Virus record (IMG/VR): IMGVR_UViG_3300020442_000208
Span: 1-25,256 of that record
DNA from: a virus
Lineage: Duplodnaviria; Caudoviricetes
Direction: 5' to 3' (one strand)
DNA: 25,256 bases
The notes beneath the pieces were generated by a model. It was not told where the DNA came from and ran no database searches. It saw only the letters and a list, made by a program, of their open reading frames with translations. Shown piece by piece: positions 8,549 through 23,362 of this stretch; position 1 is the stretch's first letter, and each line of letters begins with the position of its first letter. Made by a program: the position numbers and the translations under genes.

Positions 8549-9215
8549 ACATATAGAAACTAAACTAAAAGATATGGTAACGGAAGATTCCGAAACAGGA
8601 AGAGTCTATAAGACCCCTGAAGGAATTGATCTTCCGTCTATTACAACTGTACTATCAATATTATCCAGAGCAGGTATTGCTGCTTGGAGAAAACGTGTTG
8701 GTGAAGAAGAAGCAAATCGTATTTCAACGCAAGCATCTCGTAGAGGTACTGCGGTTCACGAAATCATTGAGAAGTATATTGACAATGTAGAGGATTTCAA
8801 AGATGGTTATACTCCTGATGTTATACAGTCTTTTCTTGATCTTAAGCCTATACTTGATTCAAGAATTGGTAAAGTCTTTGCCCAAGAAGCACCCCTGTAC
8901 TCCACTTACCTTGGTGTCGCTGGTCGTGTTGATTGTGTATGTGAGTTTGACGGTAAACCCGCTATCGTAGATTTCAAGACTTCACGTAAGAAGAAGTATC
9001 CTTCAATGATCAAGAACTACTTTATGCAAGAAGCAGGATATGCTGTGATGTGGGAAGAACGAACTGGACAACCCATAACACAACTCGTTACAATCATTGC
9101 AGTGGACAATGAAGACCCTCAAATCTTTGTTGAACACCGTGATAACTGGGTTAATCAACTCAAAGATGTAATAAATCAGTACAACGAGGAAAATTCTAGC
9201 GTCACATTATTATAA
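8541..9215 (+). CDS. PD-(D/E)xK exonuclease (Cas4/lambda-exo-like) of T4-like phages
   Basis: LPSITTVL, RGTAVH, QEAPL, AGRVDC, IVDFKTS, YFMQEAGYA. Confidence 0.9.
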   Translation: MFEHIETKLKDMVTEDSETGRVYKTPEGIDLPSITTVLSILSRAGIAAWRKRVGEEEANRISTQASRRGTAVHEIIEKYIDNVEDFKDGYTPDVIQSFLDLKPILDSRIGKVFAQEAPLYSTYLGVAGRVDCVCEFDGKPAIVDFKTSRKKKYPSMIKNYFMQEAGYAVMWEERTGQPITQLVTIIAVDNEDPQIFVEHRDNWVNQLKDVINQYNEENSSVTLL

Positions 9216-9218
9216 ATA
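9211..9218 (+). promoter_or_regulatory. T4-type late promoter
   Basis: Exact TATAAATA about 35 nt upstream of the next gene. Confidence 0.85.
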
Positions 9219-9252
9219 GAAGAGTGATAAACTATAATTCAGAGGACGTTTG

Positions 9253-10335
9253 ATGAAAAGATTCGCTCAATTCTATTTGGAAGAAAAACGGGTTGATACA
9301 ACCGCAACAGCAGCTTATACTGAGTTGTACCCCGCACTTATGTTCAATAGTGGTTACCGTCCAACCTCTGTGGAAGATGTTAAGAAATTCGTATATCGTG
9401 CGAATCTCAAAGATGCTAAAAACAAAAAAACGTTCATCAATCTAAACGGTACTGACCCTGAGTCTGCTCAAAAGTATATTGACAAGATGTCGGGATTTGC
9501 TGACAGACTAATCACAACTAAATTAGAGAACGCAATTGGTATCACCAATTATCTCTATGACCTTCACGCCTCTAACCCTATCAAAGACGTTAAGTGGGGA
9601 TTCCGTGATAAACCACGTGGTGTTCCATCTGGTCACGCAGGCGATATTTTTGTTAACTTCAAGAACGGTGATATGATTGGTATCAGTCTCAAGGCGGGTA
9701 CTTCTAAATCAAAAGAACCTCTACTCAATAGTTATGTCAATACCCAATACAAGAAGATCGGTAAGGAAGACAAACTGTCTGGTCTAGAAGATGCATTGTG
9801 GGATGGTGTGTATTCCAAACTGCCTGGTTTACCAGACGATGTGAAAAAAGATAACTATATGAGTAAGAAGGCAGCTGTTAGACAAGCATACCTAGATTAC
9901 TATCTTGAGAATGAGTCAGATGCAGATATGCTCTATGCAGCTATGGCAAGAATCTCACGTGAACAATTTGTTGAACAATTAAATACTCTTTCCCTAGATG
10001 ACTTTAAGTCTTGGGTCGAGTCAAACTTTAACTTACAAAAACCACAGAACCCACCACTAGTATTAGTCAAGGCAGTCAAAAAAACTGCGGAACAAAAGGG
10101 GGATGCATTACAGGATATTCTACCACTGGTAACAGATTTTAAGGCAAAGTTAAACACTAAGTCTGTTCAAGAATGGTTCATCGACATCGAAGCGCCAGAA
10201 GGTACTAAGAGACTATCGATGACTATTCGATCAGATGCAGGCGTTCGTGCGGGTAAGAAACTTGCGGGACTAGGTAAACTAGGTAAGTTCACTGCACTGA
10301 AATTACAATATAACGGTATATCGGATTTAAACTAA
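9253..10335 (+). CDS. Restriction-endonuclease-like (PD-(D/E)xK variant) protein with capsid-targeting-like N-terminus
   Basis: N-terminus MKRFAQFYLEE; motif HAGDIFV-x-MIGISLK. SD GAGG. Confidence 0.6.
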   Translation: MKRFAQFYLEEKRVDTTATAAYTELYPALMFNSGYRPTSVEDVKKFVYRANLKDAKNKKTFINLNGTDPESAQKYIDKMSGFADRLITTKLENAIGITNYLYDLHASNPIKDVKWGFRDKPRGVPSGHAGDIFVNFKNGDMIGISLKAGTSKSKEPLLNSYVNTQYKKIGKEDKLSGLEDALWDGVYSKLPGLPDDVKKDNYMSKKAAVRQAYLDYYLENESDADMLYAAMARISREQFVEQLNTLSLDDFKSWVESNFNLQKPQNPPLVLVKAVKKTAEQKGDALQDILPLVTDFKAKLNTKSVQEWFIDIEAPEGTKRLSMTIRSDAGVRAGKKLAGLGKLGKFTALKLQYNGISDLN

Positions 10336-10338
10336 TAG

Positions 10339-10920
10339 ATGAGATTAGATCAAAGTTTATATGATCACGATTTTGTGAATCCATTACCGATAATCCATAA
10401 TGGTTATCTGGTAATGACTCCACCGAAGAACGCATCTTCGTTCTTCAATAGAATGTGGGGATTTGGTGTACAACCACCTAGAGAGGGTGAGGTACATACA
10501 AAGATTGCGATTAAACGTGACCCAATCCAGAGATGGTTGAGTGCGTTGAATCAACAGAGACAAAGATTACAATGGGGTGTTTGGAAACATAAACAAACAC
10601 TAGAAGAGAATATCTCGTTTTGGGAACAAGACCCTAACGAAATAATAGATATCCATCTACCGAAGAATAGTCCGATTAGAGAGATATCTGAATTTTGTGG
10701 ACAGTATGAATGGGCGGGGAGTATGACAGAGTATGACATTTGTGTATATCCCAGACACATAGACAAGTGGATATTACCTATGTTAAATGTCATACCAAAA
10801 GATGCGCCTAGAAATGAGTATACAGGTAAGGAAAAAAGAACCGAAAAAGACTTGACAAGTGAATCAAAAGAGAAGATAATGTACCTATATGAAAACGATT
10901 ACAAAAACGGTTGGTGTTAA
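10339..10920 (+). CDS. Sulfotransferase-like protein
   Basis: 5'-PSB-like PPKNASSF, 3'-PB-like KRDPIQRWLSA, C-terminal IMYLYENDY. Confidence 0.7.
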   Translation: MRLDQSLYDHDFVNPLPIIHNGYLVMTPPKNASSFFNRMWGFGVQPPREGEVHTKIAIKRDPIQRWLSALNQQRQRLQWGVWKHKQTLEENISFWEQDPNEIIDIHLPKNSPIREISEFCGQYEWAGSMTEYDICVYPRHIDKWILPMLNVIPKDAPRNEYTGKEKRTEKDLTSESKEKIMYLYENDYKNGWC

Positions 10921-10921
10921 A

Positions 10922-12139
10922 ATGAACTTTCAAGAGTTTATAACAGAACAGAAGAATACACATATGACCCACATTGAGGACAAGGTTCTCTATGGTGGTG
11001 TCGATGGTACACGTCAGGCAATAAATGCCTTACGTGATCTACGGGATATGTTAGGTGGTAAAGGTCAATCTAGACTATCTACTAAGTGGGATGGTGCTCC
11101 CGCTATTTTCTGTGGAGAAGACCCACGTGACGGAGAATTCTTCGTTGCGAAGAAAGGTATCTTTAATCAGAACCCACAGGTCTTCAAATCTGATGCAGAG
11201 ATCGATGCAGAATTATCTGGTGATCTCGCAGATAAGATGAAAGCAGCACTTAAGTACCTTCCTGATCTTGGCATTAAAGGTGTCATTCAGGGAGACTTCT
11301 TATACGGTGAAGGTGATGTAGTTGAGAAAACAATCGATAAAGTCAAGTATGTAACCTTCCACCCTAATACTATTGTGTATGCAATACCTAAAGAGCAGGC
11401 AGATGATGTTGTCAACTCAAAAATAGGTATAGTGTGGCACACTACATATAAGGGTAAGGATTTTGAATCTATGAAAGCACAGTATGGTGTGGACGTATCA
11501 AAATTCAAAACATCTAAAAATGTATGGTCGCAAGATGCAATGTTACGTAATGTATCTGGTGCGACAATGAATGAAAAGGAGACTAATGATGTTAACAAAT
11601 ATTTATCGCAAGCTGGTAAACTTTTTCGCAAAACGGCAGGAAGCACTCTCAGAGAACTCGAAGCAAATCAGGAACTCGCAGGGCTCATCGAAACCTACGG
11701 CAACACGTTCGTCCGTAAAGGGGAAGTCATCCCGAACTCGAAAAAGCACGTCCAAGGCCTCATCAAGTGGATCGAAGACAAATACCAAAAGGAAATCGCC
11801 AAGCGCAAGTCCCAAAAAGGTCAGCAAACCCAAAAAGACAAGCTCAACGAAATCCTCAAGTTCTTCTCGCAAAAGAACAAAAAAAGTTTAGAAAATATGT
11901 TTGAATTGCAGAGAAATATTGTCTTTGCGAAACTAAAACTTATAAATAAACTTAACAGCATCTCTAGTATCGATGCCTTTGTGCAAACAAAAGATGGTTA
12001 CAAAGTAACTGGTGCCGAAGGTTTCGTTGCTATAGATGACTTGGGTGGTGATGCGGTCAAGTTGGTTGACCGCTTAGAATTTTCGTACAACAACTTCAGT
12101 CCTGATGTACTGAAGGGATGGGATAAACCAACGAGGTAA
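10922..12139 (+). CDS. ATP-dependent ligase-like nucleotidyltransferase (DUF6267-like), conserved T4-like phage protein
   Basis: Motif I STKWDGAP, III VIQGD, IV AEGFV, V VKLVDR. N-terminus MNFQEFITEQKNTHMTHIED. ATG 10922 preferred over 10889. Confidence 0.8.
   Translation: MNFQEFITEQKNTHMTHIEDKVLYGGVDGTRQAINALRDLRDMLGGKGQSRLSTKWDGAPAIFCGEDPRDGEFFVAKKGIFNQNPQVFKSDAEIDAELSGDLADKMKAALKYLPDLGIKGVIQGDFLYGEGDVVEKTIDKVKYVTFHPNTIVYAIPKEQADDVVNSKIGIVWHTTYKGKDFESMKAQYGVDVSKFKTSKNVWSQDAMLRNVSGATMNEKETNDVNKYLSQAGKLFRKTAGSTLRELEANQELAGLIETYGNTFVRKGEVIPNSKKHVQGLIKWIEDKYQKEIAKRKSQKGQQTQKDKLNEILKFFSQKNKKSLENMFELQRNIVFAKLKLINKLNSISSIDAFVQTKDGYKVTGAEGFVAIDDLGGDAVKLVDRLEFSYNNFSPDVLKGWDKPTR
11589..11891 (+). 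CDS. Overprinted (+1 frame) Ser/Lys/Arg-rich basic protein, 100 aa
   Basis: SD AAGGAG at 11576-11581, 7 nt before ATG 11589. Across the overlap, 19 consecutive L/I/V/F codons of the host gene are all NTC. Confidence 0.7.
   Translation: MLTNIYRKLVNFFAKRQEALSENSKQIRNSQGSSKPTATRSSVKGKSSRTRKSTSKASSSGSKTNTKRKSPSASPKKVSKPKKTSSTKSSSSSRKRTKKV
11941..11948 (+). promoter_or_regulatory. Putative internal late promoter
   Basis: Exact TATAAATA within the CDS, about 200 nt upstream of the next gene. Could be chance in AT-rich DNA. Confidence 0.4.
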
Positions 12140-12142
12140 AAA

Positions 12143-12580
12143 ATGCCAAAACCAATGGGCTTTAAAGACTTTATCGCAGTAGATTACACCGAAACAGGTG
12201 ATGATCAACTCGCTTACAATGCTAAGAAACGTAAAACGCAAGACGAAGCGTTGACACGTCAGCAACGTATGGCAGCATCCCGCCGTATGAAAAAACTCGC
12301 TCGCAAAATTCAAATAGGTAAAAAGAAAGCTGCTAAGAAAGTAGCATCTATGGACAAGTTAAAGGTACGTGCAAATAAACAGGCACGTGAATTACTTCTT
12401 AAGAAAATGACTAAGGGTAAAGGAAAGGATCAACTTTCACTTGCACGTAGACAGGAATTAGAAAAGAAACTCGACAAAAAGAAAGCAGTCATTGCTAAAA
12501 TCGCAAAGAAACTGTTACCTAAAGTGAGAAAGAAAGAGTTAGAAAAGAAACGGGGTGGTGCAACAGGTGAGTCATCTTAG
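12143..12580 (+). CDS. Very basic helical protein (putative nucleic-acid-binding internal virion protein)
   Basis: MGFKDFI N-terminal motif; K/R-dominated sequence after DEALT. SD GAGGT. Confidence 0.8.
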   Translation: MPKPMGFKDFIAVDYTETGDDQLAYNAKKRKTQDEALTRQQRMAASRRMKKLARKIQIGKKKAAKKVASMDKLKVRANKQARELLLKKMTKGKGKDQLSLARRQELEKKLDKKKAVIAKIAKKLLPKVRKKELEKKRGGATGESS

Positions 12581-13760
12581 ATTTAAAGATTATTTAATAG
12601 AAGAAACGAAGGAAGTTTATTTTACTTTTGGTAGAATGAACCCGCCTACTATCGGTCACGGTAAAGTGATGGATGTTCTTAAGACAAAAGCAAGTGGTGC
12701 TGACTACAGAGTATACGTATCTCAGTCACAAGATGCTAAGAAAAATCCACTATCCTATTCAGACAAAATTAAACATCTACGCAAGATGTTCCCTCAACAC
12801 GCACGTCAAATTATGGTTGACAAAAAAGTGCGTACTGCAATCGAAGCACTAGTAGCACTATATGATGCGGGTTACCAAAAAGTTAATATGGTGGTTGGTG
12901 CGGATCGAATCCGTGAGTTTGATATACTTGCAAAGAAATACAACGGTGTAAAAGCAAGACACGGACTATACAATTTCAAATCTATCAATATCATATCTGC
13001 GGGTGAAAGAGACCCTGATGCAGAAGGTGTTGAAGGAATGTCAGCATCTAAGATGCGTGGATTTGCAACAGACAACGATTTCCAATCCTTTGCACAAGGA
13101 TTACCCGCAAAAGTAAATAACAAGGATGCGAAAAAACTTTTCAACGATGTTAGAAGAGGTATGGGTCTCAAGGAAGAGACCTCTTTCGCTAGACACATTG
13201 AGTTACCTGTTGTTTCCGAAACAAGAGAACAATTTGTAAAAGGTGATCTGTTCGAACTTGGTGACACTGTTGTTATCAAAGAAAGCGAAGAGGTTGGTGT
13301 TATTACTGTACTAGGTGCTAACTATGTTATCGTAGAAATGTCAGACGGTAAGAAAATGCGTAAGTGGTTAGATGCAGTAGAGGTTATAGAGAAGAAACTA
13401 ACACCCGCTGAACTCAAGAAGAGAGAAGAGATCGCAAAAGCAATAGAAAAAGATAATCCCGATATGCCAATGGATAAGAAAATGGCAATCGCAACTGCAA
13501 CCGCAAAAAGAGTTGCAGAAGAAGGTAAGGGTAAGAAACAAGACCCCGATATTAAAGATAGAGAAGGGACACAACCCGCACGATATCATAAAGGTCTTGC
13601 AAAGTCTACTAAGAGTAAACGTGATGCCCACTTTAAGAAACACGGTAAGAAAGCAGATGATGATCAATCTGCATATAAACCAGCGCCTGGCGATAAGGGA
13701 TCGAAAACAAAACCTTCGAAATATACGAAGTCATTTAAACAAATGTTTGGAGATGATTAA
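12567..13760 (+). CDS. Phage cytidyltransferase-like (HIGH superfamily) protein with C-terminal appended modules
   Basis: FTFGRMNPPTIGH, KNPL, VVGADR, SAGERDPD, MSASKMR. Then an SH3-like segment and basic modules. Start GTG 12567 (or 12555). Confidence 0.88.
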   Translation: MSHLRFKDYLIEETKEVYFTFGRMNPPTIGHGKVMDVLKTKASGADYRVYVSQSQDAKKNPLSYSDKIKHLRKMFPQHARQIMVDKKVRTAIEALVALYDAGYQKVNMVVGADRIREFDILAKKYNGVKARHGLYNFKSINIISAGERDPDAEGVEGMSASKMRGFATDNDFQSFAQGLPAKVNNKDAKKLFNDVRRGMGLKEETSFARHIELPVVSETREQFVKGDLFELGDTVVIKESEEVGVITVLGANYVIVEMSDGKKMRKWLDAVEVIEKKLTPAELKKREEIAKAIEKDNPDMPMDKKMAIATATAKRVAEEGKGKKQDPDIKDREGTQPARYHKGLAKSTKSKRDAHFKKHGKKADDDQSAYKPAPGDKGSKTKPSKYTKSFKQMFGDD

Positions 13761-14518
13761 TGTTGAGTGAATTTCCACGAGGAGAACACCATAGCGATAT
13801 CAGTGAGATAGATTGGATCACCTTAGATAATGATATGGGTGATGGAGAGTGGAAAGTACGTGCGTGGCATTATGGACGTAACAATGGTGCATCACCGTTT
13901 GGTGGTTGGGATCGAGACTTTGATATGGTCTATAATGTGGACAACATTACTAGAAGTTGGGAAGCAGATGTCAATGATAATGATAGTCCCTATTCGGACA
14001 ATAATGTATTAGGCGGAATGACCTATGAAGACTTTATTACATTCGCTGGTCAAGGTATTAGTCCGACTATACGAAGAGAAGGAAACAAATCAAAATATTA
14101 TGAGACTGGAGATTTTTGGTGGGTACAATTAAATTGGCAAGATGAACCTATGTTGTACACGTGTGTAGCTCCAACACCTAGTGAATGGGTAAGAGCAAAT
14201 GCACCTACAGAAGATTTAAGTTGGGGAGTATTCGGTGTACATTTCTCATCTGCGGGAAGAGGTAAAACATCCCCACGTGCATCTCAAAATTATATTTACA
14301 GTGAAATATTTTTAGAGCAATTCACAAAAATATTTAAAGACGTTCTTGGTTGGAGAGGAGACTTAGCAATCGGCCCTACCAATGCTCGAGCAGTACAATT
14401 TAGAATAAAAGCTGTCGCAACAGAAGCTTGGTCAAAGAGGTATGCAGATATACATCAAGAGCAGGTAGAAAATTTGGCAGGAGAAGAGGTTACAAGACAA
14501 TGGTGTGTATATCGTTAA
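13760..14518 (+). CDS. Hypothetical Trp/Asp-rich protein (weak GNAT-like C-terminus)
   Basis: 252-aa ORF with TAATG coupling and SD GGAG. IGPTNARAVQF resembles GNAT motif B. Confidence 0.65.
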   Translation: MLSEFPRGEHHSDISEIDWITLDNDMGDGEWKVRAWHYGRNNGASPFGGWDRDFDMVYNVDNITRSWEADVNDNDSPYSDNNVLGGMTYEDFITFAGQGISPTIRREGNKSKYYETGDFWWVQLNWQDEPMLYTCVAPTPSEWVRANAPTEDLSWGVFGVHFSSAGRGKTSPRASQNYIYSEIFLEQFTKIFKDVLGWRGDLAIGPTNARAVQFRIKAVATEAWSKRYADIHQEQVENLAGEEVTRQWCVYR

Positions 14519-14742
14519 AACAATATTTAGAAGAAGACGTATCTAAGGCATTAAAAGATAAGTCTGATAAATCAGGAGTTTCAGTTGGAACACTGCGTAA
14601 AGTTTATAATCGTGGTGTTGCCGCTTGGAAGACGGGACATAGGCCTGGCACTACTCCTCAGCAATGGGGATTGGCAAGGGTCAATGCATTTATAGTTAAA
14701 AAGAAAAAAGGTGGACTTAACCACGATAAGGACTTGGCGTAA
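14500..14742 (+). CDS. Small basic protein, DUF5824-like C-terminal half
   Basis: ATG 14500 with SD GAGGT. LKQYLEE, then LRKVYNRGVAAWKTGHRPGTTPQQWGLARVN. Confidence 0.75.
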   Translation: MVCISLKQYLEEDVSKALKDKSDKSGVSVGTLRKVYNRGVAAWKTGHRPGTTPQQWGLARVNAFIVKKKKGGLNHDKDLA

Positions 14743-14744
14743 AA

Positions 14745-16595
14745 ATGAAAACATTAGAAGAATTTAAACTTAACGAAAACGTTATCGAGAAGATGCGTAA
14801 AATTGTTGCAGATAAACAAGCTGCAAAGATCGATGGAGTGATGGTAGATATGTTCACTGCATCGGCAGTAACCCAAATCTATGATAAAGTAAACGATGCA
14901 AATAAGAAGAAGATGGAGAAACTAAAAGCTCCTAAACTTGCTGATCTTGCATTTAAGTTGATGCAGAAATCTCAGAAGGAAAATGCTGGAGAAGAAGGCA
15001 CATCTAAGTTACTCAACAAATACAAAAAAGACACGCCAATGTCCGAACGAGTAAAAGATGGTAAAGTCGATCCTCTATCAAAAATGGGTAAGTCCAAACT
15101 CACAGGGCGTGAAGTTTCCCAATACTATAAAGCAAATCCAAAACAGCGAGTAGCTGCAAAAGACCCTATAGTTAAGAAAGCAATAGAACTTGCACTTGAC
15201 CTTGGTGGTAATATGTCCTACGCTGAGAAAGAGATAGAGAAACTTAAGAAAGGTTTGTCTAAGAATAAGAACGTCAAGATGGCACTTCAACACGCAAACG
15301 AAGAAGTAGTAAAAGAAGGTCTTCTAATGCGAGAGTATGAGCCAGGCGAATACCGCAAGGGTGAAGAAAAACAATATGTTGATCTTATCAAAAAGAACGG
15401 TGGTAAGAATATTGACGTTGAAGTACCTGACCGTAGAAATGATATGTTGCGTATCGAATTCGAAGGTGGTAATCTTAGAAAGATGATGCAAGACTTAGAT
15501 AAGTTTGATGATGGTCTTACTACTATAGACGAAGGAACTTGGGCGTTACCTAAGTCTGCAAAAGAAAAGAAAGCATTTAAAGACCTAATGAAGAAACCTA
15601 TTCCGTTGGGAAGAGATGGTGACGATGCATCTGATAAATTGTATAACATCGTAGGTGATGATTCATTGTTTGACGATCTATACGATGCTGGTAGAAAGAA
15701 TCCAAAAGGTGATGCAAGAGAAGTTGTTCGCAAACACGCAAAACGCCTTGGACTAAAAGAAGGTCTTTCGATGCCACGTGATCAGTTTGATATGTTGAAG
15801 AAAGGTGACAAACTAACTATTCACTTTGATTCATCAATCAAGAAAGGACACAAAGTTCCTATGGTAATTAAGAGTCTGTCTCGTTCCGCAAAGTTTAACG
15901 TAGACAAGATCAATCTTGTTCCACAATCTGGTCGTGGCAAATACACTCTCTATAGTCGCCAAGGTAAAGACGCTACACTCGCAATGGGTGATATGGGTAC
16001 AGTAATGACTCGTATTGAATATCCAAAGGGTGGAGTTCAGAAAGAAGCGGTATCACCCGCTCAACAGGCTGCGATTGCAATCTCTAAGAAAGAGAAAGGT
16101 GAGAAACCTAAGAACGAATGTGCCGATGAGAAAGACTTCAAACCACATATGATGTATGATCCTAAAACTGGTAAGGGTATAATGGCAAAGACTTATCAAG
16201 ACCATTTAGATTTAGCAGACAAAGGTTACGTACACGAAAAACCTAAGAACGAAAACAGATCATTCAAATCTGCAAGACGTGATGCAATGCGTGGTATGGC
16301 AACAGACAAAGATATGCAGAGAAAGAAAGATGACGATGATATCGTTGCAACAGACGATGATCGTAAAGCTGCTGACAAAAACCCTATCATTCAATTAAGA
16401 AGGATTGCAGATTTACCACGTGGTGGTGATATGGAATTTAAGGATGGTAAGAAGGTTAAGGTTTCTCAGAAGGATGCACTCAAAGCACTGAAAGGTTTTG
16501 GTGTTATGAAGAAACCTGCCGAGAAACAAAAGTTTGCACAGAATGTCGGTAAATCATTAAAAGACCTCAAACGAATATTAAAGATTATTAAATGA
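14745..16595 (+). CDS. Large Lys-rich modular protein, putative protease-processed internal head polyprotein
   Basis: MKTLEEFKLNE N-terminus. Short modules separated by Glu-ending junctions (KEN, VKEG, IDEG, LKEG, QKEA, KNE). Confidence 0.75.
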   Translation: MKTLEEFKLNENVIEKMRKIVADKQAAKIDGVMVDMFTASAVTQIYDKVNDANKKKMEKLKAPKLADLAFKLMQKSQKENAGEEGTSKLLNKYKKDTPMSERVKDGKVDPLSKMGKSKLTGREVSQYYKANPKQRVAAKDPIVKKAIELALDLGGNMSYAEKEIEKLKKGLSKNKNVKMALQHANEEVVKEGLLMREYEPGEYRKGEEKQYVDLIKKNGGKNIDVEVPDRRNDMLRIEFEGGNLRKMMQDLDKFDDGLTTIDEGTWALPKSAKEKKAFKDLMKKPIPLGRDGDDASDKLYNIVGDDSLFDDLYDAGRKNPKGDAREVVRKHAKRLGLKEGLSMPRDQFDMLKKGDKLTIHFDSSIKKGHKVPMVIKSLSRSAKFNVDKINLVPQSGRGKYTLYSRQGKDATLAMGDMGTVMTRIEYPKGGVQKEAVSPAQQAAIAISKKEKGEKPKNECADEKDFKPHMMYDPKTGKGIMAKTYQDHLDLADKGYVHEKPKNENRSFKSARRDAMRGMATDKDMQRKKDDDDIVATDDDRKAADKNPIIQLRRIADLPRGGDMEFKDGKKVKVSQKDALKALKGFGVMKKPAEKQKFAQNVGKSLKDLKRILKIIK

Positions 16596-16801
16596 AGTCA
16601 TTTAAAGAACACAATGACATCGAGGAAGCATTAGTGACAGATAATTCTGCCACTGTTGATGCTATACTTAACGATGTCAAACGACTATTAATGAAAGACC
16701 TAGATAAAGGTGACTATAAAAGAGTCAATCAACTTGCAAAGATTGTCAATAAAAAAGTCGCCCCATCAAGTAAACATAAGGGTAAATCAATAACAAAATG
16801 A
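16592..16801 (+). CDS. Small hypothetical protein with capsid-targeting-like N-terminus
   Basis: MKSFKEHNDIEE; ATGA coupling on both sides. Confidence 0.75.
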   Translation: MKSFKEHNDIEEALVTDNSATVDAILNDVKRLLMKDLDKGDYKRVNQLAKIVNKKVAPSSKHKGKSITK

Positions 16802-17307
16802 AAACGTTTTCGGATCATTGTACTTGCGGTAAAGAATCTAACTTGGTAGAGAGTAATGTCTATCGTGTAGGTTCTGAGAAGTATTTTGAATACTGGCGTA
16901 ATATCCGTGAGGAATATTATGCTGGTAATGTTATGGTGGAAGCACACGAGATCGATATTATCGAATCTGATCTAGGTGAATTTGCAAAATGGAGAGGAGA
17001 AGATGTCCCTCTAGATTGCATAATGGAAGAAGAAGACAAAGAATTAAACAAACCAAAAAGAGGTGGGCCTAAGAAGTATTACGTATACGTAAAAGACCCT
17101 TCCACTGGAAACATCAAGAAAGTATCTTGGGGTGATACAACTGGATTGAAAGTTAAATTGAACGATCCAGAAGCAAGAAAGTCATTCGCTGCTCGTCACA
17201 AATGTGATCAACAGAACGATAAGACCAAAGCTGCCTACTGGGCGTGTCGATTACCTAGATATGCAAAACAACTTGGTCTGTCTGGTGGGGGTTCATTCTT
17301 TTGGTAA
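16798..17307 (+). CDS. Hypothetical protein with basic C-terminal domain (DUF6321-like, tentative)
   Basis: MKTFSDH N-terminus; KKYYVYVKD..KKVSWGD..RKSFAARHKC..AAYWAC. Confidence 0.8.
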   Translation: MKTFSDHCTCGKESNLVESNVYRVGSEKYFEYWRNIREEYYAGNVMVEAHEIDIIESDLGEFAKWRGEDVPLDCIMEEEDKELNKPKRGGPKKYYVYVKDPSTGNIKKVSWGDTTGLKVKLNDPEARKSFAARHKCDQQNDKTKAAYWACRLPRYAKQLGLSGGGSFFW

Positions 17308-17579
17308 TTGATAAGAAACCGTACAGAGAATTAGTCTTTGCTACAGGTGAGAAGTTAAGAATTTTTGATGATTCCGTATTAGATAGTGAACTAGTATGGC
17401 ATCGAGATAAAAGGGATCGTAGGGTTACGGTCATAGAATCTGGTGAATGGAAGTTCCAGATGGATGATCAAGAACCTGTGATCTTAAAACAGGGCGATGT
17501 ATTCCGTATACCAAAAATGGTTTATCATCGTATAATAAAAGGCGAAAACGACTTAGTTTTAAGGATTAAAGAATTATAA
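17301..17579 (+). CDS. Small cupin-fold protein
   Basis: ELVWHRD, WKFQMD, LKQGDVFRIPKMVYHRI cupin motifs. TTG start uncertain. Confidence 0.78.
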   Translation: MVIDKKPYRELVFATGEKLRIFDDSVLDSELVWHRDKRDRRVTVIESGEWKFQMDDQEPVILKQGDVFRIPKMVYHRIIKGENDLVLRIKEL

Positions 17580-17582
17580 ATA
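17575..17582 (+). promoter_or_regulatory. T4-type late promoter
   Basis: Exact TATAAATA about 35 nt before ATG 17618. Confidence 0.85.
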
Positions 17583-17617
17583 GTTCTATATTTACTTATT
17601 TTAAATGGGATTAACTA

Positions 17618-17899
17618 ATGGTTAAAGAAACACAGGCACAACGACTTGATCGAATTGAAGACAAGATCGACAAACTATCGGATGCGATGGTCTCTCTTGC
17701 ACGTGCCGAAGAGAAATTAATTGCAATAGAGAAAAATAATCATTCAGCGGTAGAGAGAATGAACAGATTTAGCCAGAAGTTAGACGCCATCGAGAAAAAG
17801 GTGGATGAGAACGCCCACACCGTGGGTATAATTAATCGACTATTTTGGGTAGTCATTGTTGCAGCTGCGGGTGCAGTCGCATCAAGTTTTTGGATGTAA
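17618..17899 (+). CDS. Coiled-coil protein with C-terminal TM helix (XhlA/holin-accessory-like architecture)
   Basis: RLDRIEDKIDKL heptads and a terminal hydrophobic segment LFWVVIVAAAGAVA. Confidence 0.75.
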   Translation: MVKETQAQRLDRIEDKIDKLSDAMVSLARAEEKLIAIEKNNHSAVERMNRFSQKLDAIEKKVDENAHTVGIINRLFWVVIVAAAGAVASSFWM

Positions 17900-17912
17900 A
17901 GGAGAAACTACG

Positions 17913-18995
17913 ATGAAAACATCTGATCTAAAAAAACTGGGTGAAGCATACCTTCAAGTAGTTTCACCAAAAGCTGAAGAGGAAGAAATCCTTGAGGCAA
18001 AAAGTAAGACCGAAGATAACACTAACGACAAATCAGACGATGGTGACGGTCTTGATAAAGTACAACCGAAAGCGGTAAAGAAGAAATTCGCAGATCGCAA
18101 AGACAAAGACATCGATAACGATGGCGATGTTGATGACTCCGACAAGTTCCTTCACAAGAGACGTAAAGCAGTTTCCAAAGCAATGGAAAAAGAAGGTAAT
18201 GCATTTACTGGTGCATTAAAAGCTGCTAAAGATAACGGTGAGGACGAATTTGTAGTCGCTGGTAAAAAGTACAAAGTCAAAGAAGTTGAGGAAGATATCA
18301 AAGCACTCAAACTTCAGACTGAAGCAAAGAAAGTCAAAGAAGAGGACGAAGAAGAAGATGAAAATCCAGTAGTCCCTGCTCGTGACGTTAAGAAGAAAGA
18401 AAAGAAAAAGGATGACGAAGAAGAGTCAGACGATGAAGGTGAAGAAGAAGAAGAAGCACCTGAAGATGATGACGAAGAAGAGAAACCTGAAGACCCTAAG
18501 AAGGACAAAGGTGATCTGAAAAAGAATCCTAAGACCGCTGATAAGAAAGCAGAAATCTCAAAGATCGAAAGTGTAAAAACTAACGAGGCATTTGAAGAGT
18601 TCTGGAATGCTTTCGAGGAATTGACTGAAAAGAGGAAAGAAGCACAAGGTGCTGCCGATCCAGAAGCAATCGATTCTAAAGAATCACCGAAGTCAAAAGA
18701 ATTTATCGCAAAGCACGGTAAAGACGAGAAAGAAAACGATTCTCTTTCTAAAGACAACAAGAAAGGTGAAGATGCCACCAAACCTAAGTCTGGTAAAAGA
18801 AAAGCAGACTCAACTGTAGGTGAAGCAAAATCACTAGTAGACCTTGCAAGGGAAGTGTTAGCGGGTGAGAACCCTAATGCATTTGCCGAGATGAAAGGTG
18901 ATAAAGTTGTTAAAGAGAAAGAAACAAATCCTTACGATGGTAGAACTAAAGCTGCCAAAGAATTTCTCGAAAGAATGAATAAGAGGCGATCATAA
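17913..18995 (+). CDS. Highly charged, low-complexity late protein (putative prohead core/internal protein) with EF-hand-like loop
   Basis: SD AAGGAG before ATG 17913. DKDIDNDGDVDDSD loop, poly-acidic tract, C-terminal DGRTKAAKEFLERM. Confidence 0.8.
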   Translation: MKTSDLKKLGEAYLQVVSPKAEEEEILEAKSKTEDNTNDKSDDGDGLDKVQPKAVKKKFADRKDKDIDNDGDVDDSDKFLHKRRKAVSKAMEKEGNAFTGALKAAKDNGEDEFVVAGKKYKVKEVEEDIKALKLQTEAKKVKEEDEEEDENPVVPARDVKKKEKKKDDEEESDDEGEEEEEAPEDDDEEEKPEDPKKDKGDLKKNPKTADKKAEISKIESVKTNEAFEEFWNAFEELTEKRKEAQGAADPEAIDSKESPKSKEFIAKHGKDEKENDSLSKDNKKGEDATKPKSGKRKADSTVGEAKSLVDLAREVLAGENPNAFAEMKGDKVVKEKETNPYDGRTKAAKEFLERMNKRRS

Positions 18996-19258
18996 TGGCA
19001 ATAAGATTATTAGGCGCTCAAGCTGCATTGGGAGTTGGAACTGGAAATGGTTCTAACTTCAGCAATGCTTCAGCAGTACGTGTAGTAAATCCAAGTGGTA
19101 CGAACTATGTTGTTTCAGTAGAAACATCTGCGAATGTACTACTTGGTTCATTTACACTGTGTGCTGGTGAATCAGAGATTATCCACAAAGGTACTTCAGA
19201 CGAAATATTCGCAGCTAACGCTGCTGTGTTGGGTGCTGCTGTCGGATATTCTCACTAA
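18995..19258 (+). CDS. Small beta-rich protein, probably a virion structural protein
   Basis: A/G/V/N/S-rich sequence starting MA; translationally coupled; in a late operon. Confidence 0.72.
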   Translation: MAIRLLGAQAALGVGTGNGSNFSNASAVRVVNPSGTNYVVSVETSANVLLGSFTLCAGESEIIHKGTSDEIFAANAAVLGAAVGYSH

Positions 19259-19277
19259 TTAATAAAGGAAGAAGATT

Positions 19278-19613
19278 ATGGCAATTAAAGCTCCTGCTTG
19301 GTGTTCACACGCTGTCCCTACTCTAAATGGGTGGGAAGACCCTGATACTGGTGAACTATATGTTTCCAGTGGTTTCAACCAAGATGAAATAGACGAATTC
19401 TTTAATGTTAAAGCTTCAGGAATGGAAGTTATCAAAGAAGTTCCTGAACCAGAAGTCGAAACATTGATCGAAGCACCAGTTAATGACAAAGGTCTTGATG
19501 ATATGACCAAAGTCGAACTGGAAGCCCTTGGTAGACAACACGGGGTAGAACTAGACCGTAGATTAAAAAAGGAAACTTTGTTAGGTCAGATATCTAAGTT
19601 ATTGAAGTCATAA
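19278..19613 (+). CDS. Hypothetical protein with C-terminal Rho-N/HeH-like helical module
   Basis: MTKVELEALGRQHGVELDRRLKKETLL. SD AAGGA. Confidence 0.75.
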   Translation: MAIKAPAWCSHAVPTLNGWEDPDTGELYVSSGFNQDEIDEFFNVKASGMEVIKEVPEPEVETLIEAPVNDKGLDDMTKVELEALGRQHGVELDRRLKKETLLGQISKLLKS

Positions 19614-19641
19614 GTAGTATTAAGGGTTTACCCTTTACTTA
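19611..19641 (+). other. Intergenic hairpin next to an RBS
   Basis: TAAGTA..AAGGG-ttta-CCCTT-TACTTA, just before SD AGGA of 19651. Confidence 0.4.
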
Positions 19642-19650
19642 GGATTTATT

Positions 19651-20016
19651 ATGATTTTAACAAAAGATAACTTGATACTCTACGCAGCTAAACACTATTA
19701 TAATCCAAAGTGTATAGACAGCGAAGAGTTCTTTGAAGACTTAAAAAGGTTTAAGTATATAAAACGATTGTTGAATCGTTATAGAGATAATGGTGAATTA
19801 TCTGAACGATTGATATTGAATCACCTGATCGTTATATTTAATGTCTTTGGTAATGAAGCGGGTCTCGATATGTTAGAGTTACGTATCGAACTTGAACACT
19901 GGAGTGTACTGAAACCGTTTCTAATCTTCTTAAATGTAATTAAGAATGATATGTACACGAACATAGAAATGGACAAAACAGTAGTAGAGGCATTGAGAGA
20001 GATCAAGGAAAGTTAA
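19651..20016 (+). CDS. Conserved T4-like phage hypothetical protein (DUF7207-like)
   Basis: YAAKHYYNP..EEFFEDLKRFKYIKRL..ERLILNHLIVIFNVFG..LKPFL. Confidence 0.82.
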   Translation: MILTKDNLILYAAKHYYNPKCIDSEEFFEDLKRFKYIKRLLNRYRDNGELSERLILNHLIVIFNVFGNEAGLDMLELRIELEHWSVLKPFLIFLNVIKNDMYTNIEMDKTVVEALREIKES

Positions 20017-20017
20017 T

Positions 20018-20620
20018 ATGGGAATACTTAAATCAGCAGCGGACTTAGTTTATACAATTCGATTCCTCAAACTTCTTGTCACACCATTCGAGAAGTTGGG
20101 TGCATATAAAGCGGGTATCATCGATATCGATGGTAAACGTAATCCCGATTTCAATACTCTAAAAGCAGACGATAGAGAAGCGTATAGAACACACTATACT
20201 ACGTTTCATCGTCTTGTAATCAATCTAAAGAGACTTATGGCAAAAGCGCCAGGCGGTAAATCCGTAATCGCACGATACGGTGCTGCCTTGTTATTAATAA
20301 AAGAACACGGAGAACTCAGTGATGCCGATCTAGAAAAGATTCATCAAGAAACTGGTATCGATGAGTTGCAATTGATTGAAGAACAATCACAATGGTTTAT
20401 GTTAAAGGATGGAAGTGGTATCACGCCAGGCGTATATAAGATGCTACACGATACCACTACAACACAAGTTGATGATATCGTCAAGAAAGATGATGCGATT
20501 CGCATCGAAGAAGGTCTTGAGACACCTATTGACAATGTATTAGGTGTAGATATTTTTCAAGCAACGCATATGAAATCCCAAAGAAAGATATATATAAGCT
20601 CAGGAGAAATAACCAGATGA
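20018..20620 (+). CDS. T4 gp30.3-like protein
   Basis: RFLKLLVTPFEKLGAYKAGIIDIDGK, YTTFHRLVINLKRL, AALLLIKE. Confidence 0.7.
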   Translation: MGILKSAADLVYTIRFLKLLVTPFEKLGAYKAGIIDIDGKRNPDFNTLKADDREAYRTHYTTFHRLVINLKRLMAKAPGGKSVIARYGAALLLIKEHGELSDADLEKIHQETGIDELQLIEEQSQWFMLKDGSGITPGVYKMLHDTTTTQVDDIVKKDDAIRIEEGLETPIDNVLGVDIFQATHMKSQRKIYISSGEITR

Positions 20621-20805
20621 AGAAGTTTAAAGAATATGCGAACGAAGACACAACTGTAGGTTCAGTTGCTGGTCTCACTGGTGAACCCCCTGTAAATTTA
20701 AAAAAGAAAAAGAAAGACGATCACAGCGTTCTAAAAAGATTCATCGAGAATCGTCAAGAAAGTGAACGTAAGTGGCGTGAAAACTTAGAATCAAAACTAA
20801 GGTAG
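20617..20805 (+). CDS. Small basic protein with capsid-targeting-like N-terminus
   Basis: MKKFKEYANE; SD AGGAG; ATGA coupling. Confidence 0.75.
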   Translation: MKKFKEYANEDTTVGSVAGLTGEPPVNLKKKKKDDHSVLKRFIENRQESERKWRENLESKLR

Positions 20806-21373: not shown

Positions 21374-23362
21374 ATGCCTATAAAAATAGATAAGAAGAGG
21401 GATGAACTACTCGCTGAATATGCAGTGGGTATGTTAAAGGATTTCTACCTCACAAGTCACGAGAAATCACCACAAGAAGGATACGCAAGGGCCGCTAAGG
21501 CGTGGTCAACCTATTTGGGAGAGACAGATGGAGAACTTGCACAACGCATTTATGATTATGTTAGCAATAAGTGGTTTATGTACGCTTCTCCAGTATTGTC
21601 TAATGCCCCTAACGGAGAAGACTCCAAAAGTAAAGGGTTACCGATTTCTTGTTTCCTTACTTACGTCCCAGATACTCTTGAAGGTCTCATTAGTCATAGT
21701 TCTGAGTTACGTTGGCTTAGTGTTTATGGTGGCGGCGTTGGGGGTCACTGGTCAGACGTGCGAACTGTGTCCGACATTGCGCCTGGCCCTATCCCGTTCT
21801 TACACACTGTAGATGCAGATATGATCGCTTACCGTCAAGGTAAGACACGTAAAGGATCATACGCCGCTTATATGGATATCCACCACCCTGATATTGTGGA
21901 GTTCCTGAACATACGTATTCCTACAGGTGATGTACAACGTAAGGCATTGAACTTACACAACGCAATTAATATTACAGACGAATTTATGGAGGCAGTAATA
22001 AACGATACTGACTTCGATCTACGTGATCCTAAAGATGGAACAGTAAAAGAGTCTATCAACGCACGTAAACTTTGGGAAAGAATTCTTGAGGTGAGATTCC
22101 GTACAGGTGAACCTTATCTCAATTTTATTGACACTGCAAACAAACATCTACCAGAAAATCTAAAAGAACTGGGTTTGAAGATTCACGGAAGTAATCTCTG
22201 TAATGAGATTCACCTTCCAACTTCAGATGATCGTACAGCAGTGTGTTGTTTATCGTCACTTAATTTGGAATACTATGATGAATGGAAAGATACAACTATT
22301 GTCCGTGATCTTGTGCGGATGCTTGATAACGTCTTGCAGTTCTTTATCGAGCGTGCCCCAGACACCATCACCAGAGCAAAATACTCCGCAGAACGAGAAC
22401 GTTCCATTGGACTCGGAGCTATGGGATTCCATTCCCTATTGCAAAAACATAATGTTGCGTGGGAATCTGAAGCGGCACGAGATATTAATAAAGTGGTGTT
22501 TGGATTTATTAAAGAACAAGCAGAAACAGAGTCCAGAGTTTTGGCAGAGGAAAGGGGGGAATATCCTGATGGCATTGGAACGGGGAAACGTAATGCACAT
22601 CTGTTGGCAATTGCACCCAACGCCTCAAGTGGAGTTATTCTGTCAACTTCCCCAAGTATTGAACCACTCAAGGCAAATGCATATACCCATAGAACGAGGG
22701 CGGGTTCGTTCCTCGTAAAGAACAAATATCTGAAAGCACTTTTAGAAGAAAAAGGTGAGAACACAGATTCAACGTGGACTTCTATTATAACAAATAAAGG
22801 ATCGGTACAACACTTGCCGTTTCTGACAGAAGGTGAGAAAGCAGTATTCAAGACTGCGGATGAACTCAATCAGATGTGGGTGGTTAAACACGCAGCTGAA
22901 AGACAACCATTTATCTGTCAAGGTCAAAGTGTGAATCTATTCTTCCCTTCAGGTGTGGATAAATCTTATGTTAATAAGGTTCATCTTAGTGCTTGGAAAG
23001 AGGGGTTAAAAGGACTCTACTATCTAAGAACAGAAGCGAAGTCTCGTGCAGAGAATGTTTCTGAGAAAGTAGAAAGGGTTGCACTACAAGATGATATCAG
23101 AAATGTGATCTATGGTAAAAAAGATTGTCCGTTCTGTGCAATGGCAAAAGAAGAGATGAAACTACGTGGGATTCAGTACGACTATGTTGATCTTCAAGAA
23201 GTTGGTAAAACAGCTGCTGAAGTGACAGGTAGGAAAGTAAAGACTGTACCACAAATTTATCTCGAAGGTGAGTACATTGGTGGTTATGATGAGTTGATGA
23301 AGTATTTCGATGCAAATGGAAATACAGAAGAAAGTGAAGAATGTACTGCTTGCGAAGGTTAA
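21374..23362 (+). CDS. nrdA: Ribonucleotide reductase class Ia alpha subunit with fused glutaredoxin domain
   Basis: ASPVLSN, PISCF, GGGVG, GSNLCNEI, VCCLSS, IGLGAMG, AIAPNASS, CQGQSVN, KGLYYLRT. Then CPFC..TVPQI..IGG and terminal CTACEG. No N-terminal ATP cone. Confidence 0.97.
   Translation: MPIKIDKKRDELLAEYAVGMLKDFYLTSHEKSPQEGYARAAKAWSTYLGETDGELAQRIYDYVSNKWFMYASPVLSNAPNGEDSKSKGLPISCFLTYVPDTLEGLISHSSELRWLSVYGGGVGGHWSDVRTVSDIAPGPIPFLHTVDADMIAYRQGKTRKGSYAAYMDIHHPDIVEFLNIRIPTGDVQRKALNLHNAINITDEFMEAVINDTDFDLRDPKDGTVKESINARKLWERILEVRFRTGEPYLNFIDTANKHLPENLKELGLKIHGSNLCNEIHLPTSDDRTAVCCLSSLNLEYYDEWKDTTIVRDLVRMLDNVLQFFIERAPDTITRAKYSAERERSIGLGAMGFHSLLQKHNVAWESEAARDINKVVFGFIKEQAETESRVLAEERGEYPDGIGTGKRNAHLLAIAPNASSGVILSTSPSIEPLKANAYTHRTRAGSFLVKNKYLKALLEEKGENTDSTWTSIITNKGSVQHLPFLTEGEKAVFKTADELNQMWVVKHAAERQPFICQGQSVNLFFPSGVDKSYVNKVHLSAWKEGLKGLYYLRTEAKSRAENVSEKVERVALQDDIRNVIYGKKDCPFCAMAKEEMKLRGIQYDYVDLQEVGKTAAEVTGRKVKTVPQIYLEGEYIGGYDELMKYFDANGNTEESEECTACEG

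Follow-up and report, generated by a model that had tools for sequence, protein, structure and literature searches.

The DUF6267 gene and its neighbourhood

The window, by which is meant the whole stretch of 25,256 nucleotides analysed here, is part of the genome of a T4-like marine phage and carries nrdA/nrdB, exonuclease and cytidyltransferase genes. The gene at 10922-12139 encodes a member of the DUF6267 family (Pfam PF19782, E 3.7e-104) with a putative ATP-dependent RNA-ligase-like fold and a capsid-targeting-like leader. Wholly inside this host gene, in its +1 frame, lies an open reading frame (ORF) of 100 aa (11589-11891), led by the Shine-Dalgarno (SD) sequence AAGGAG at 11576-11581. 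Directly downstream of the host gene are the gene for a 145-aa basic protein, also with a capsid-targeting-like leader (12143-12580), and a cytidyltransferase-like gene (12555-13760; PHROG 3041/395). Two putative promoters match TATAAATA, the T4 late-promoter consensus; one, at 9211-9218, heads the gene run that includes the host gene, and the other, at 11941-11948, is in the 3' part of the host gene itself. All of these features are on the plus strand.

No solved relative of the host protein is found by sequence, and a literature search returned no paper on DUF6267. The residues K55-x-D57-G58, Q123-G-D125, F146, E366-G367, K380 and R384 are invariant in 230 of 230 DUF6267 proteins, and they correspond to the KxDG motif I and the later nucleotidyltransferase motifs. 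VIA-align superimposes the model of the host protein on 5cot (Z 7.1, rmsd 3.9, 176 residues aligned), on 6n0t (Z 7.1, rmsd 4.4, 197 aligned) and on T4 Rnl2 (2hvq; Z 7.0, rmsd 4.5, 183 aligned). The matches to RNA ligases are middling, with Z of 6.7-7.1 over 163-203 residues, and rank under several small helical bundles; the best Foldseek matches are DNA ligases, at E 0.056. Together, the invariant motifs and this fold match support the ligase-like character given to the gene by the first-pass annotation, and the product is a putative ligase-like protein as judged from its motifs and a fold model. In the model, the nested ORF falls in an all-helical stretch, residues 218-345, between Q123-G-D125/F146 and E366-G367, in agreement with its earlier placement in a helical insert between ligase motifs. 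Residues 239-315 of this insert match YqeY-like bundles (Z 7.1, rmsd 3.0, 76 aligned), which may be a common helical arrangement.

The consensus TATAAATA has 4 matches in the window against 1.67 expected, and 7 of 100 shuffles reach as many. The site at 11941-11948 is kept in 114 of the 121 lineages described below, and the codon ATA that it requires at Ile341 is found in 115 of 121, compared with 622 of 3032 Ile codons elsewhere in the gene. This site is likely to be an internal late promoter, predicted to serve the downstream basic protein and cytidyltransferase genes. Upstream of the nested start, an internal late promoter is absent as a rule (1 of 62 lineages with an open +1 frame and 2 of 59 with a closed one). 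Late expression of the nested ORF, as originally proposed, is judged likely from the consensus at 9211, which is presumed to be an active promoter. Contigs from RNA libraries on the locus are few and short (151-398 nt) and are uninformative on level or frame; one, of 156 nt, spans the nested start.

The host leader, MNFQEFITE, resembles the T4 IPII/IPIII leader MKTYQEFIAE. A capsid-targeting role of such leaders in the T4 internal proteins is described in the accessible portion of a published account (PMC9026906). The leader tested for here is N-terminal and has its Glu cleavage site at about residue 10, and its loose pattern is matched by the host gene (10922) and five other window genes (12555, 13760, 14745, 16592 and 20617). 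Leader-like N-termini are seen by eye only at 9250, 12143 and 16798, and the gene run extends over 9250-20805. The nested protein has no capsid-targeting leader and no acidic residue before position 18. A homologue of the 145-aa basic protein is present at 25 of 26 open-frame and 20 of 26 closed loci examined. A cytidylyltransferase was detected in S-CREM2 virions, according to the available part of that report (PMC10665884). The same late region includes, at 17913-18995, a 360-aa very acidic low-complexity protein with runs of Glu/Asp/Lys, possibly a core-like protein or a partner of the basic proteins.

The nested open reading frame

The +1 frame of the host gene has stops at 11568 and 11889 and is stop-free in between. 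The SD lies 7 nt before the ATG at 11589, while the further in-frame ATGs at 11586 and 11571 are, respectively, 4 nt from the SD, as a possible alternative start, and without an SD. The ORF spans host residues 223-323, and its product of 100 aa has 29 K+R, 26 S, 2 D+E and no Cys, so that the spacing, length and composition first reported are all reproduced on recomputation. The duplex energy of the nested SD with a generic anti-SD is -8.7, tied for fourth among the 31 starts scored; that of the host gene's own start is -4.9. Synonymous resampling of the host protein gives 100 open codons with P = 0.0001, and 0 of 3000 resamplings attain 106 open codons at any place in the DUF6267 gene. Among 22 alternative-frame ORFs of at least 45 codons inside 24 window genes, the nested ORF is the sole one that is both depleted of third-position T (T3) and led by an SD.

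Two other +1 frames are seen inside nrdA (21374-23362), both on the plus strand. The frame at 22203-22718 is stop-free for 179 codons (171-aa ORF), a length matched in 1 of 3000 resamplings. Its first starts lack an SD and T3 is not depleted in it, and it is possibly a second nested gene. The ORF at 21528-21812, of 94 aa, has an ATG preceded by GGAG, and its T3 is unbiased.

Searches of Pfam, PHROGs and NCBIfam, which low complexity limits, find no family for the window's nested protein, including none of the H1, protamine or HC kind, and NCBIfam gives one chance-level match, in 1 of 15 members of the nested family. No homologue is found among called proteins, where 50 and 677 word-sharing candidates include none that is significant. 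With the nested protein as query, a search of viral contigs finds 1 locus, and the top ESM Atlas scores, 0.81 and 0.77, are to viral clusters of 88 and 120 aa, which serve as leads only. A literature search, largely without subscription journals, did not find a published description of the nested gene.

Codon usage in the overlap

In the stretch 11648-11864, the host Leu, Ile, Val and Phe codons are NTC in 19 of 19 cases, with log10 P = -13.2 under the codon usage of the window for boundaries that were picked post hoc; NTC runs in 31 other window genes reach 5 at most. The first-pass annotation had noted both this run and the return of normal usage at the +1 stop, and both are confirmed, since the next Leu codon, TTA at 11888, itself forms the stop and is succeeded by mixed usage. 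The bias extends beyond NTC, with third-position T in 4 of 81 codons in 11648-11890, compared with 82 of 222 upstream. Because the third base of a host codon serves as the second base of the +1 codon, at which T encodes hydrophobic amino acids, the loss of T3 from the host gene strips such residues from the +1 product. Hydrophobic residues in the +1 tail number 4, whereas resampled sequences have 22.9 +/- 3.4 (minimum 11 in 20,000 draws). The overlap has 19 NTC to 0 NTT (p = 2.7e-8); since NTT creates no stop, this preference points to selection on the chemistry of the product, beyond the avoidance of stops. At 11716-11904, 61 codons of the +2 frame are stop-free (P = 0.007), probably as a side effect of the loss of T3.

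A patch recombined from a higher-GC donor would be expected to have all codon classes shifted. There is no general shift in GC3, and the Lys, Glu and Gln codons of the overlap divide 21 A to 10 G, compared with 1006 to 501 in the window (p = 1.0). The reduced synonymous variability of the host gene that had been expected over the overlap is found in part. Between the window and the lineage L109, synonymous differences number 1/23 over the SD and helix, 11/48 over the tail and 64/150 upstream, but the identity of this pair over the helix could reflect recombination. Between the window and L001, the reduction is in the tail alone (12/42), the helix having 9/13.

Distribution among relatives

DUF6267 homologues were gathered by protein and by third-position-neutral DNA patterns, and lineages were defined as clusters at 88% identity, which are not independent of one another. 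The smaller set keeps, of 180 distinct genes, the 141 at >=50% identity, in 59 lineages; the larger keeps 347 near-full genes at >=50% out of 409 matches in 419 loci, with 121 clusters represented by a single gene each. An ATG-led +1 ORF of at least 65 codons is found in 22 of the 59 lineages of the smaller set, where 0.43 are expected, and in 59 of the 121 of the larger, where 0.8 are expected; since two queries were ORF carriers, the latter count is enriched for carriers and does not give a population frequency. ORFs of at least 95 codons number 11 in the larger set against 0.27 expected.

In comparing lineages, the frame was called open without requiring any start, which avoids circularity. 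On this definition, an ATG stands at the nested start in 59 of 62 open-frame lineages, compared with 23 of 59 closed ones, and an SD (GGAG or GAGG) in 47 of 62 compared with 12 of 59. Host Ser229 is encoded by the rare codon TCG, read as Arg in the +1 frame, in 21 of 49 open and 1 of 47 closed lineages, and the T3 shift is -0.18 in open and +0.01 in closed lineages. Homologues with +1 stops and no SD would count against the gene; several relatives keep both the ORF and the SD. The codon resampling and the co-occurrence of start signals across lineages thus bear out the proposal of a selected, unannotated overprinted gene. The ORF at 11589-11891 is very probably translated and under selection, and the nested ORFs in DUF6267 genes are, as a prediction from sequence, an unannotated family of overprinted genes.

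The family is patchily distributed, since the sisters closest to the window by identity have 3-7 stops in the +1 frame, with 4 in L015-L017 (77%). Because the nested ORF is missing in about half of the lineages (59 of 121), in these nearest sisters and in both cultured relatives examined (C48C1 and Melnitz-3), it must be dispensable. DUF6267 genes themselves are common in marine T4-like phages, with 466 cultured records, 2 of which were checked for the ORF, and roughly 1000-2700 IMG/VR stretches that match the DNA patterns; the nested frame is narrower in its distribution than the host frame. A sizeable fraction of the uncultured relatives sampled would encode an extra protein that gene callers miss. 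No gene in the neighbourhood of the locus tracks the presence of the ORF (26 open and 26 closed loci).

The position of the nested stop varies, within host residues 292-324. In L014, L027 and L054, the frame is open, with hydrophobic tails and no T3 loss. The sub-clade formed by these three with L066, L046 and L056 has 67-86 open codons (host 222-308), hydrophobic products and likewise no T3 loss, and these products may represent another form of the nested protein, or an earlier one. Near-identical strains in public runs vary at several sites in the ORF. Among the strain variants listed from these runs, 10 sites were decoded, of which 6 are inside the ORF. None of the 6 makes a stop and 2 alter the host protein with the +1 protein unchanged; one decoded variant adds Leu and another adds Asp to the +1 product.

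Origin of the nested frame

Trees were built from the flanks of the host gene only. In them, the window groups with the L001 group and L109 (support 0.959) amid closed sisters. In constraint tests on a tree from which L188 was omitted for its long branch, holding these together is not rejected (p-AU 0.63), while adding L122 is rejected (p-AU 0.0195). The open or closed state requires at least 8 changes on 58 rows, and the sequences point either to more than one origin of the long form or to many losses.

Column conservation in the host protein is lowest at the site of the nested gene, 0.66 compared with 0.78 and 0.82 in the other parts. Since this site is also all helical in the model, and since 23 of 59 closed lineages have the ATG through ordinary codons, it appears to be predisposed to overprinting. 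The gene would have been born by overprinting on this low-constraint helical insert, where the host codons for Val-Asn-Glu and Thr-Glu-Glu may have been one step from the ATG and the SD. The lineages range from closed frames, through open hydrophobic frames, to fully purged forms of 80-102 codons, and such a series at one site makes the steps of gene birth by overprinting comparable across many lineages. A wider proposal would make the enzyme helix a standing nursery of gene birth, in which the purged form arose at least twice, and its product a new class of late phage protein that tethers DNA or assembling heads through a membrane-anchored disordered chain; taken as a whole, this proposal is rather doubtful.

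Predicted features of the nested protein

The nested protein has a predicted amphipathic N-terminal helix, residues ~1-22 (11589-11654, plus strand), followed by a Ser/Lys/Thr-rich tail that is predicted to be disordered and is purged of hydrophobic residues, the third-position T of the host being nearly absent from the underlying DNA (11648-11888, plus strand). AlphaFold gives a helix at residues 3-22 (pLDDT 76-78) and coil thereafter, with a pTM of 0.20. The hydrophobic moment of the helix is 0.70 in the window, compared with a codon null of 0.52 +/- 0.11 (P = 0.059 for this protein alone). Across lineages, the median excess over the null is +0.18 in the 23 strongly biased lineages and +0.01 in 41 closed ones (p = 9e-5), although 3 of the 23 proteins have a weak helix moment. 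The strong class (n=23) is defined by T3 loss, so that its low hydrophobicity is circular, whereas the charge and helix tests are not. The majority residues of the helix columns, M-N-I-F-R-K-L-V-N-F-L-T-K, are kept across lineages. An amphipathic N-terminal helix had been part of the original description and, as a prediction, is supported by AlphaFold and by the excess of moment in the strongly biased lineages. In the model it has a feature of membrane anchors of the Noc/MinD type, being a short terminal helix whose hydrophobic face is flanked by Lys and Arg.

Ser, Thr and Pro are abundant in the tail, which in several lineages ends in a Lys/Pro/Ala-rich segment. Its sequence is poorly conserved, and selection appears to act mostly on composition. 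Under host Leu, Ile, Val or Phe codons, the choices in the +1 frame are Phe/Leu, Tyr/stop, Cys/Trp/stop or Ser; since Ser is the only polar residue among them, the Ser of the tail is forced. The charge is also largely forced, because host Lys, Glu and Gln codons give Lys or Arg in the +1 frame. The tail of the window protein has 25 K+R, compared with 21.9 +/- 1.2 under the null, a small excess (P = 0.02). Among the strong lineages, 11 of 23 are above the host-forced null, the median excess is 0.000, and strong and closed lineages compare at p = 0.10. The window protein has a pI of 12.0 and a tail with 31% K+R, and relatives go down to 14-15%. Since the charge is about what the host protein forces, the label of a protamine or histone H1-like protein describes a composition and no shown target of selection, and DNA condensation as the selected function, which the first-pass annotation had put forward, is not upheld. 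This serves as a warning that a protamine-like +1 composition can stem from the host protein, without selection for DNA binding. What appears from the sequences to be under selection are the start signals, the amphipathic N-terminal helix and the hydrophobic-purged tail, with Ser identity and basic charge as by-products, and it is this separation of selected features from by-products that the present analysis adds.

Possible roles

Our preferred reading, which we hold tentatively at a little under an even chance, is that the product is a late-made peripheral membrane protein, in which the helix anchors a polar disordered chain whose basic end holds phage DNA or acidic assembly proteins. If the gene is taken as translated and selected, the membrane-tether role stands at an even balance. 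Translation would begin internally on a late polycistronic mRNA, from the gene's own SD and ATG and independently of the host protein. The amphipathic helix at the N-terminus would, by prediction, rest on the anionic inner leaflet of the host cell membrane; we infer that it is a functional anchor because the pattern is held across lineages and the moment exceeds the codon null. The disordered polar tail of 80 residues would be a spacer selected for length, in which sequence is secondary as long as the chain stays soluble, and its lysine-rich end might, as a guess, bind at the membrane either phage DNA or acidic proteins of head assembly. This DNA-binding step is weakened because basic charge is not demonstrably selected, and an amphipathic helix could equally bind a protein, which counts against the membrane reading.

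The gene could, then, be real and its helix a protein-binding motif, directed at the DUF6267 enzyme, a head-assembly protein or a host defence protein, with the tail as a solubilising entropic bristle. This appears unlikely but by no means far-fetched, since specific residues are conserved beyond simple amphipathicity (Arg/Lys over host 229-230, Asn and Phe), and the accessible text on a set of 80 viral genes counts eleven overlaps that encode interacting proteins (PMC6195259); however, the invariant DUF6267 motifs do not differ between carriers and non-carriers of the nested gene, and its presence is tracked by no neighbouring gene. That the product is instead a protamine- or H1-like internal head protein, neutralising or condensing packaged DNA, is decidedly unlikely. 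Its high pI and the K+R content of the window tail, its place in a gene run with capsid-targeting-like leaders and the Lys/Pro/Ala-rich ends of several tails would fit such a role, but the K+R content matches the host-forced null, the tails of L122 and L177 have just 15% K+R, the nested product has no leader, and nearly all open-frame loci already have an adjacent gene for a dedicated basic protein with a leader.

The frame might be translated and the protein jobless, either as a by-product kept harmless or because translation itself is valued, through mRNA protection or coupling. The poor conservation of the tail, where selection is mostly on composition, the possible origin of ATG and SD from ordinary host codons and the variable stop are in keeping with this, yet it is quite improbable, since a single change of stop or SD would abolish the product more cheaply than dozens of wobble changes, and the SD is enriched rather than lost, with the helix moment and TCG229 selected as well. 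Absence of any +1 gene, with the pattern due to a C-rich recombined patch, to RNA structure or to an antisense ORF at 11603-11872, is very improbable: the patch is C-rich and an in-register antisense ORF of 89 aa does exist in the window, but Lys, Glu and Gln codons have no rise in G3, the folding z of +1.26 is no better than that of shuffles, just 7 of 59 ORF lineages have an antisense frame free of stops over host 229-306, and identical boundaries, SD and ATG recur in unrelated lineages. A programmed +1 frameshift, fusing the DUF6267 N-terminus to the polar tail, is extremely improbable. The window has CTT-TTT-CGC at host 234-236, which presumably resembles +1 slip sites, but slip-compatible TTT-C is found in just 4 of 59 ORF lineages, the 12 codons that precede host 226 contain a +1 stop in 51 of 59 and the nearest 3 codons do so in 30 of 59, and the selected SD, ATG and helix are all upstream of such a site.

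Comparison with known systems

Nested +1 genes are already known in phages of this type, and the nested DUF6267 protein differs from the known example, gp30.3'. In T4, 30.3' is annotated as an internal translation of 30.3 in a different frame (NC_000866) and, like the nested gene, is a small basic +1 ORF wholly inside another gene. Its host gene and protein are unrelated, however, and its product has 75 aa, 1 Ser, many hydrophobic residues and an N-terminal moment of 0.30, with no T3 loss, so that the precedent cited in the first-pass annotation holds for the arrangement and fails for the product. T4 IPII/IPIII resemble the nested protein in being small and Lys-rich, and the neighbours of the nested gene carry IP-like leaders; the nested protein itself is leaderless, predicted to be disordered and without sequence match to them. 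In lambda, Rz1 is a +1 gene fully embedded in Rz, a late phage gene, and has a low-complexity product. Rz1-type o-spanins have a signal peptide with a lipobox Cys and are nested in an i-spanin. The nested protein differs from Rz1 in having no Cys and no signal peptide, and its host gene is DUF6267 and no i-spanin.

Proven viral overlaps, in the available part of the survey by Pavesi et al. (2018, PMC6195259), have C-rich, T-poor DNA, are enriched in Ser/Pro and TCG, and are missed by annotation. The nested gene shares this composition bias, although that set, as far as the same part describes it, comes from eukaryotic viruses and is experimentally proven, whereas the nested gene belongs to uncultured dsDNA phages, is known by its sequence and occurs in about half of the sampled lineages. 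AAV MAAP is an overlapping-frame protein with a pI of 12 and a predicted amphipathic helix, and is membrane-associated, in the accessible sections of its description (PMC8568889). It may be regarded as a functional analogue, since the nested protein is likewise small, read from an overlapping frame, of pI about 12 and predicted to have an amphipathic helix beside basic clusters. In MAAP, as those sections present it, the helix is C-terminal, the host is eukaryotic and the localisation has been observed; homology is neither shown nor expected. DNA binding by Bacillus Noc is through a folded ParB-type body. The Noc protein binds specific DNA sequences, and its N-terminal amphipathic helix ties the DNA to the membrane (PMC4331003). 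Its anchor is the mechanism proposed for the nested protein, which has just a disordered tail and for which DNA binding is conjectural. As analogues, and within what the available parts of these two accounts cover, Noc and AAV MAAP indicate that an architecture of the kind predicted for the nested protein can work, although neither is homologous to it.
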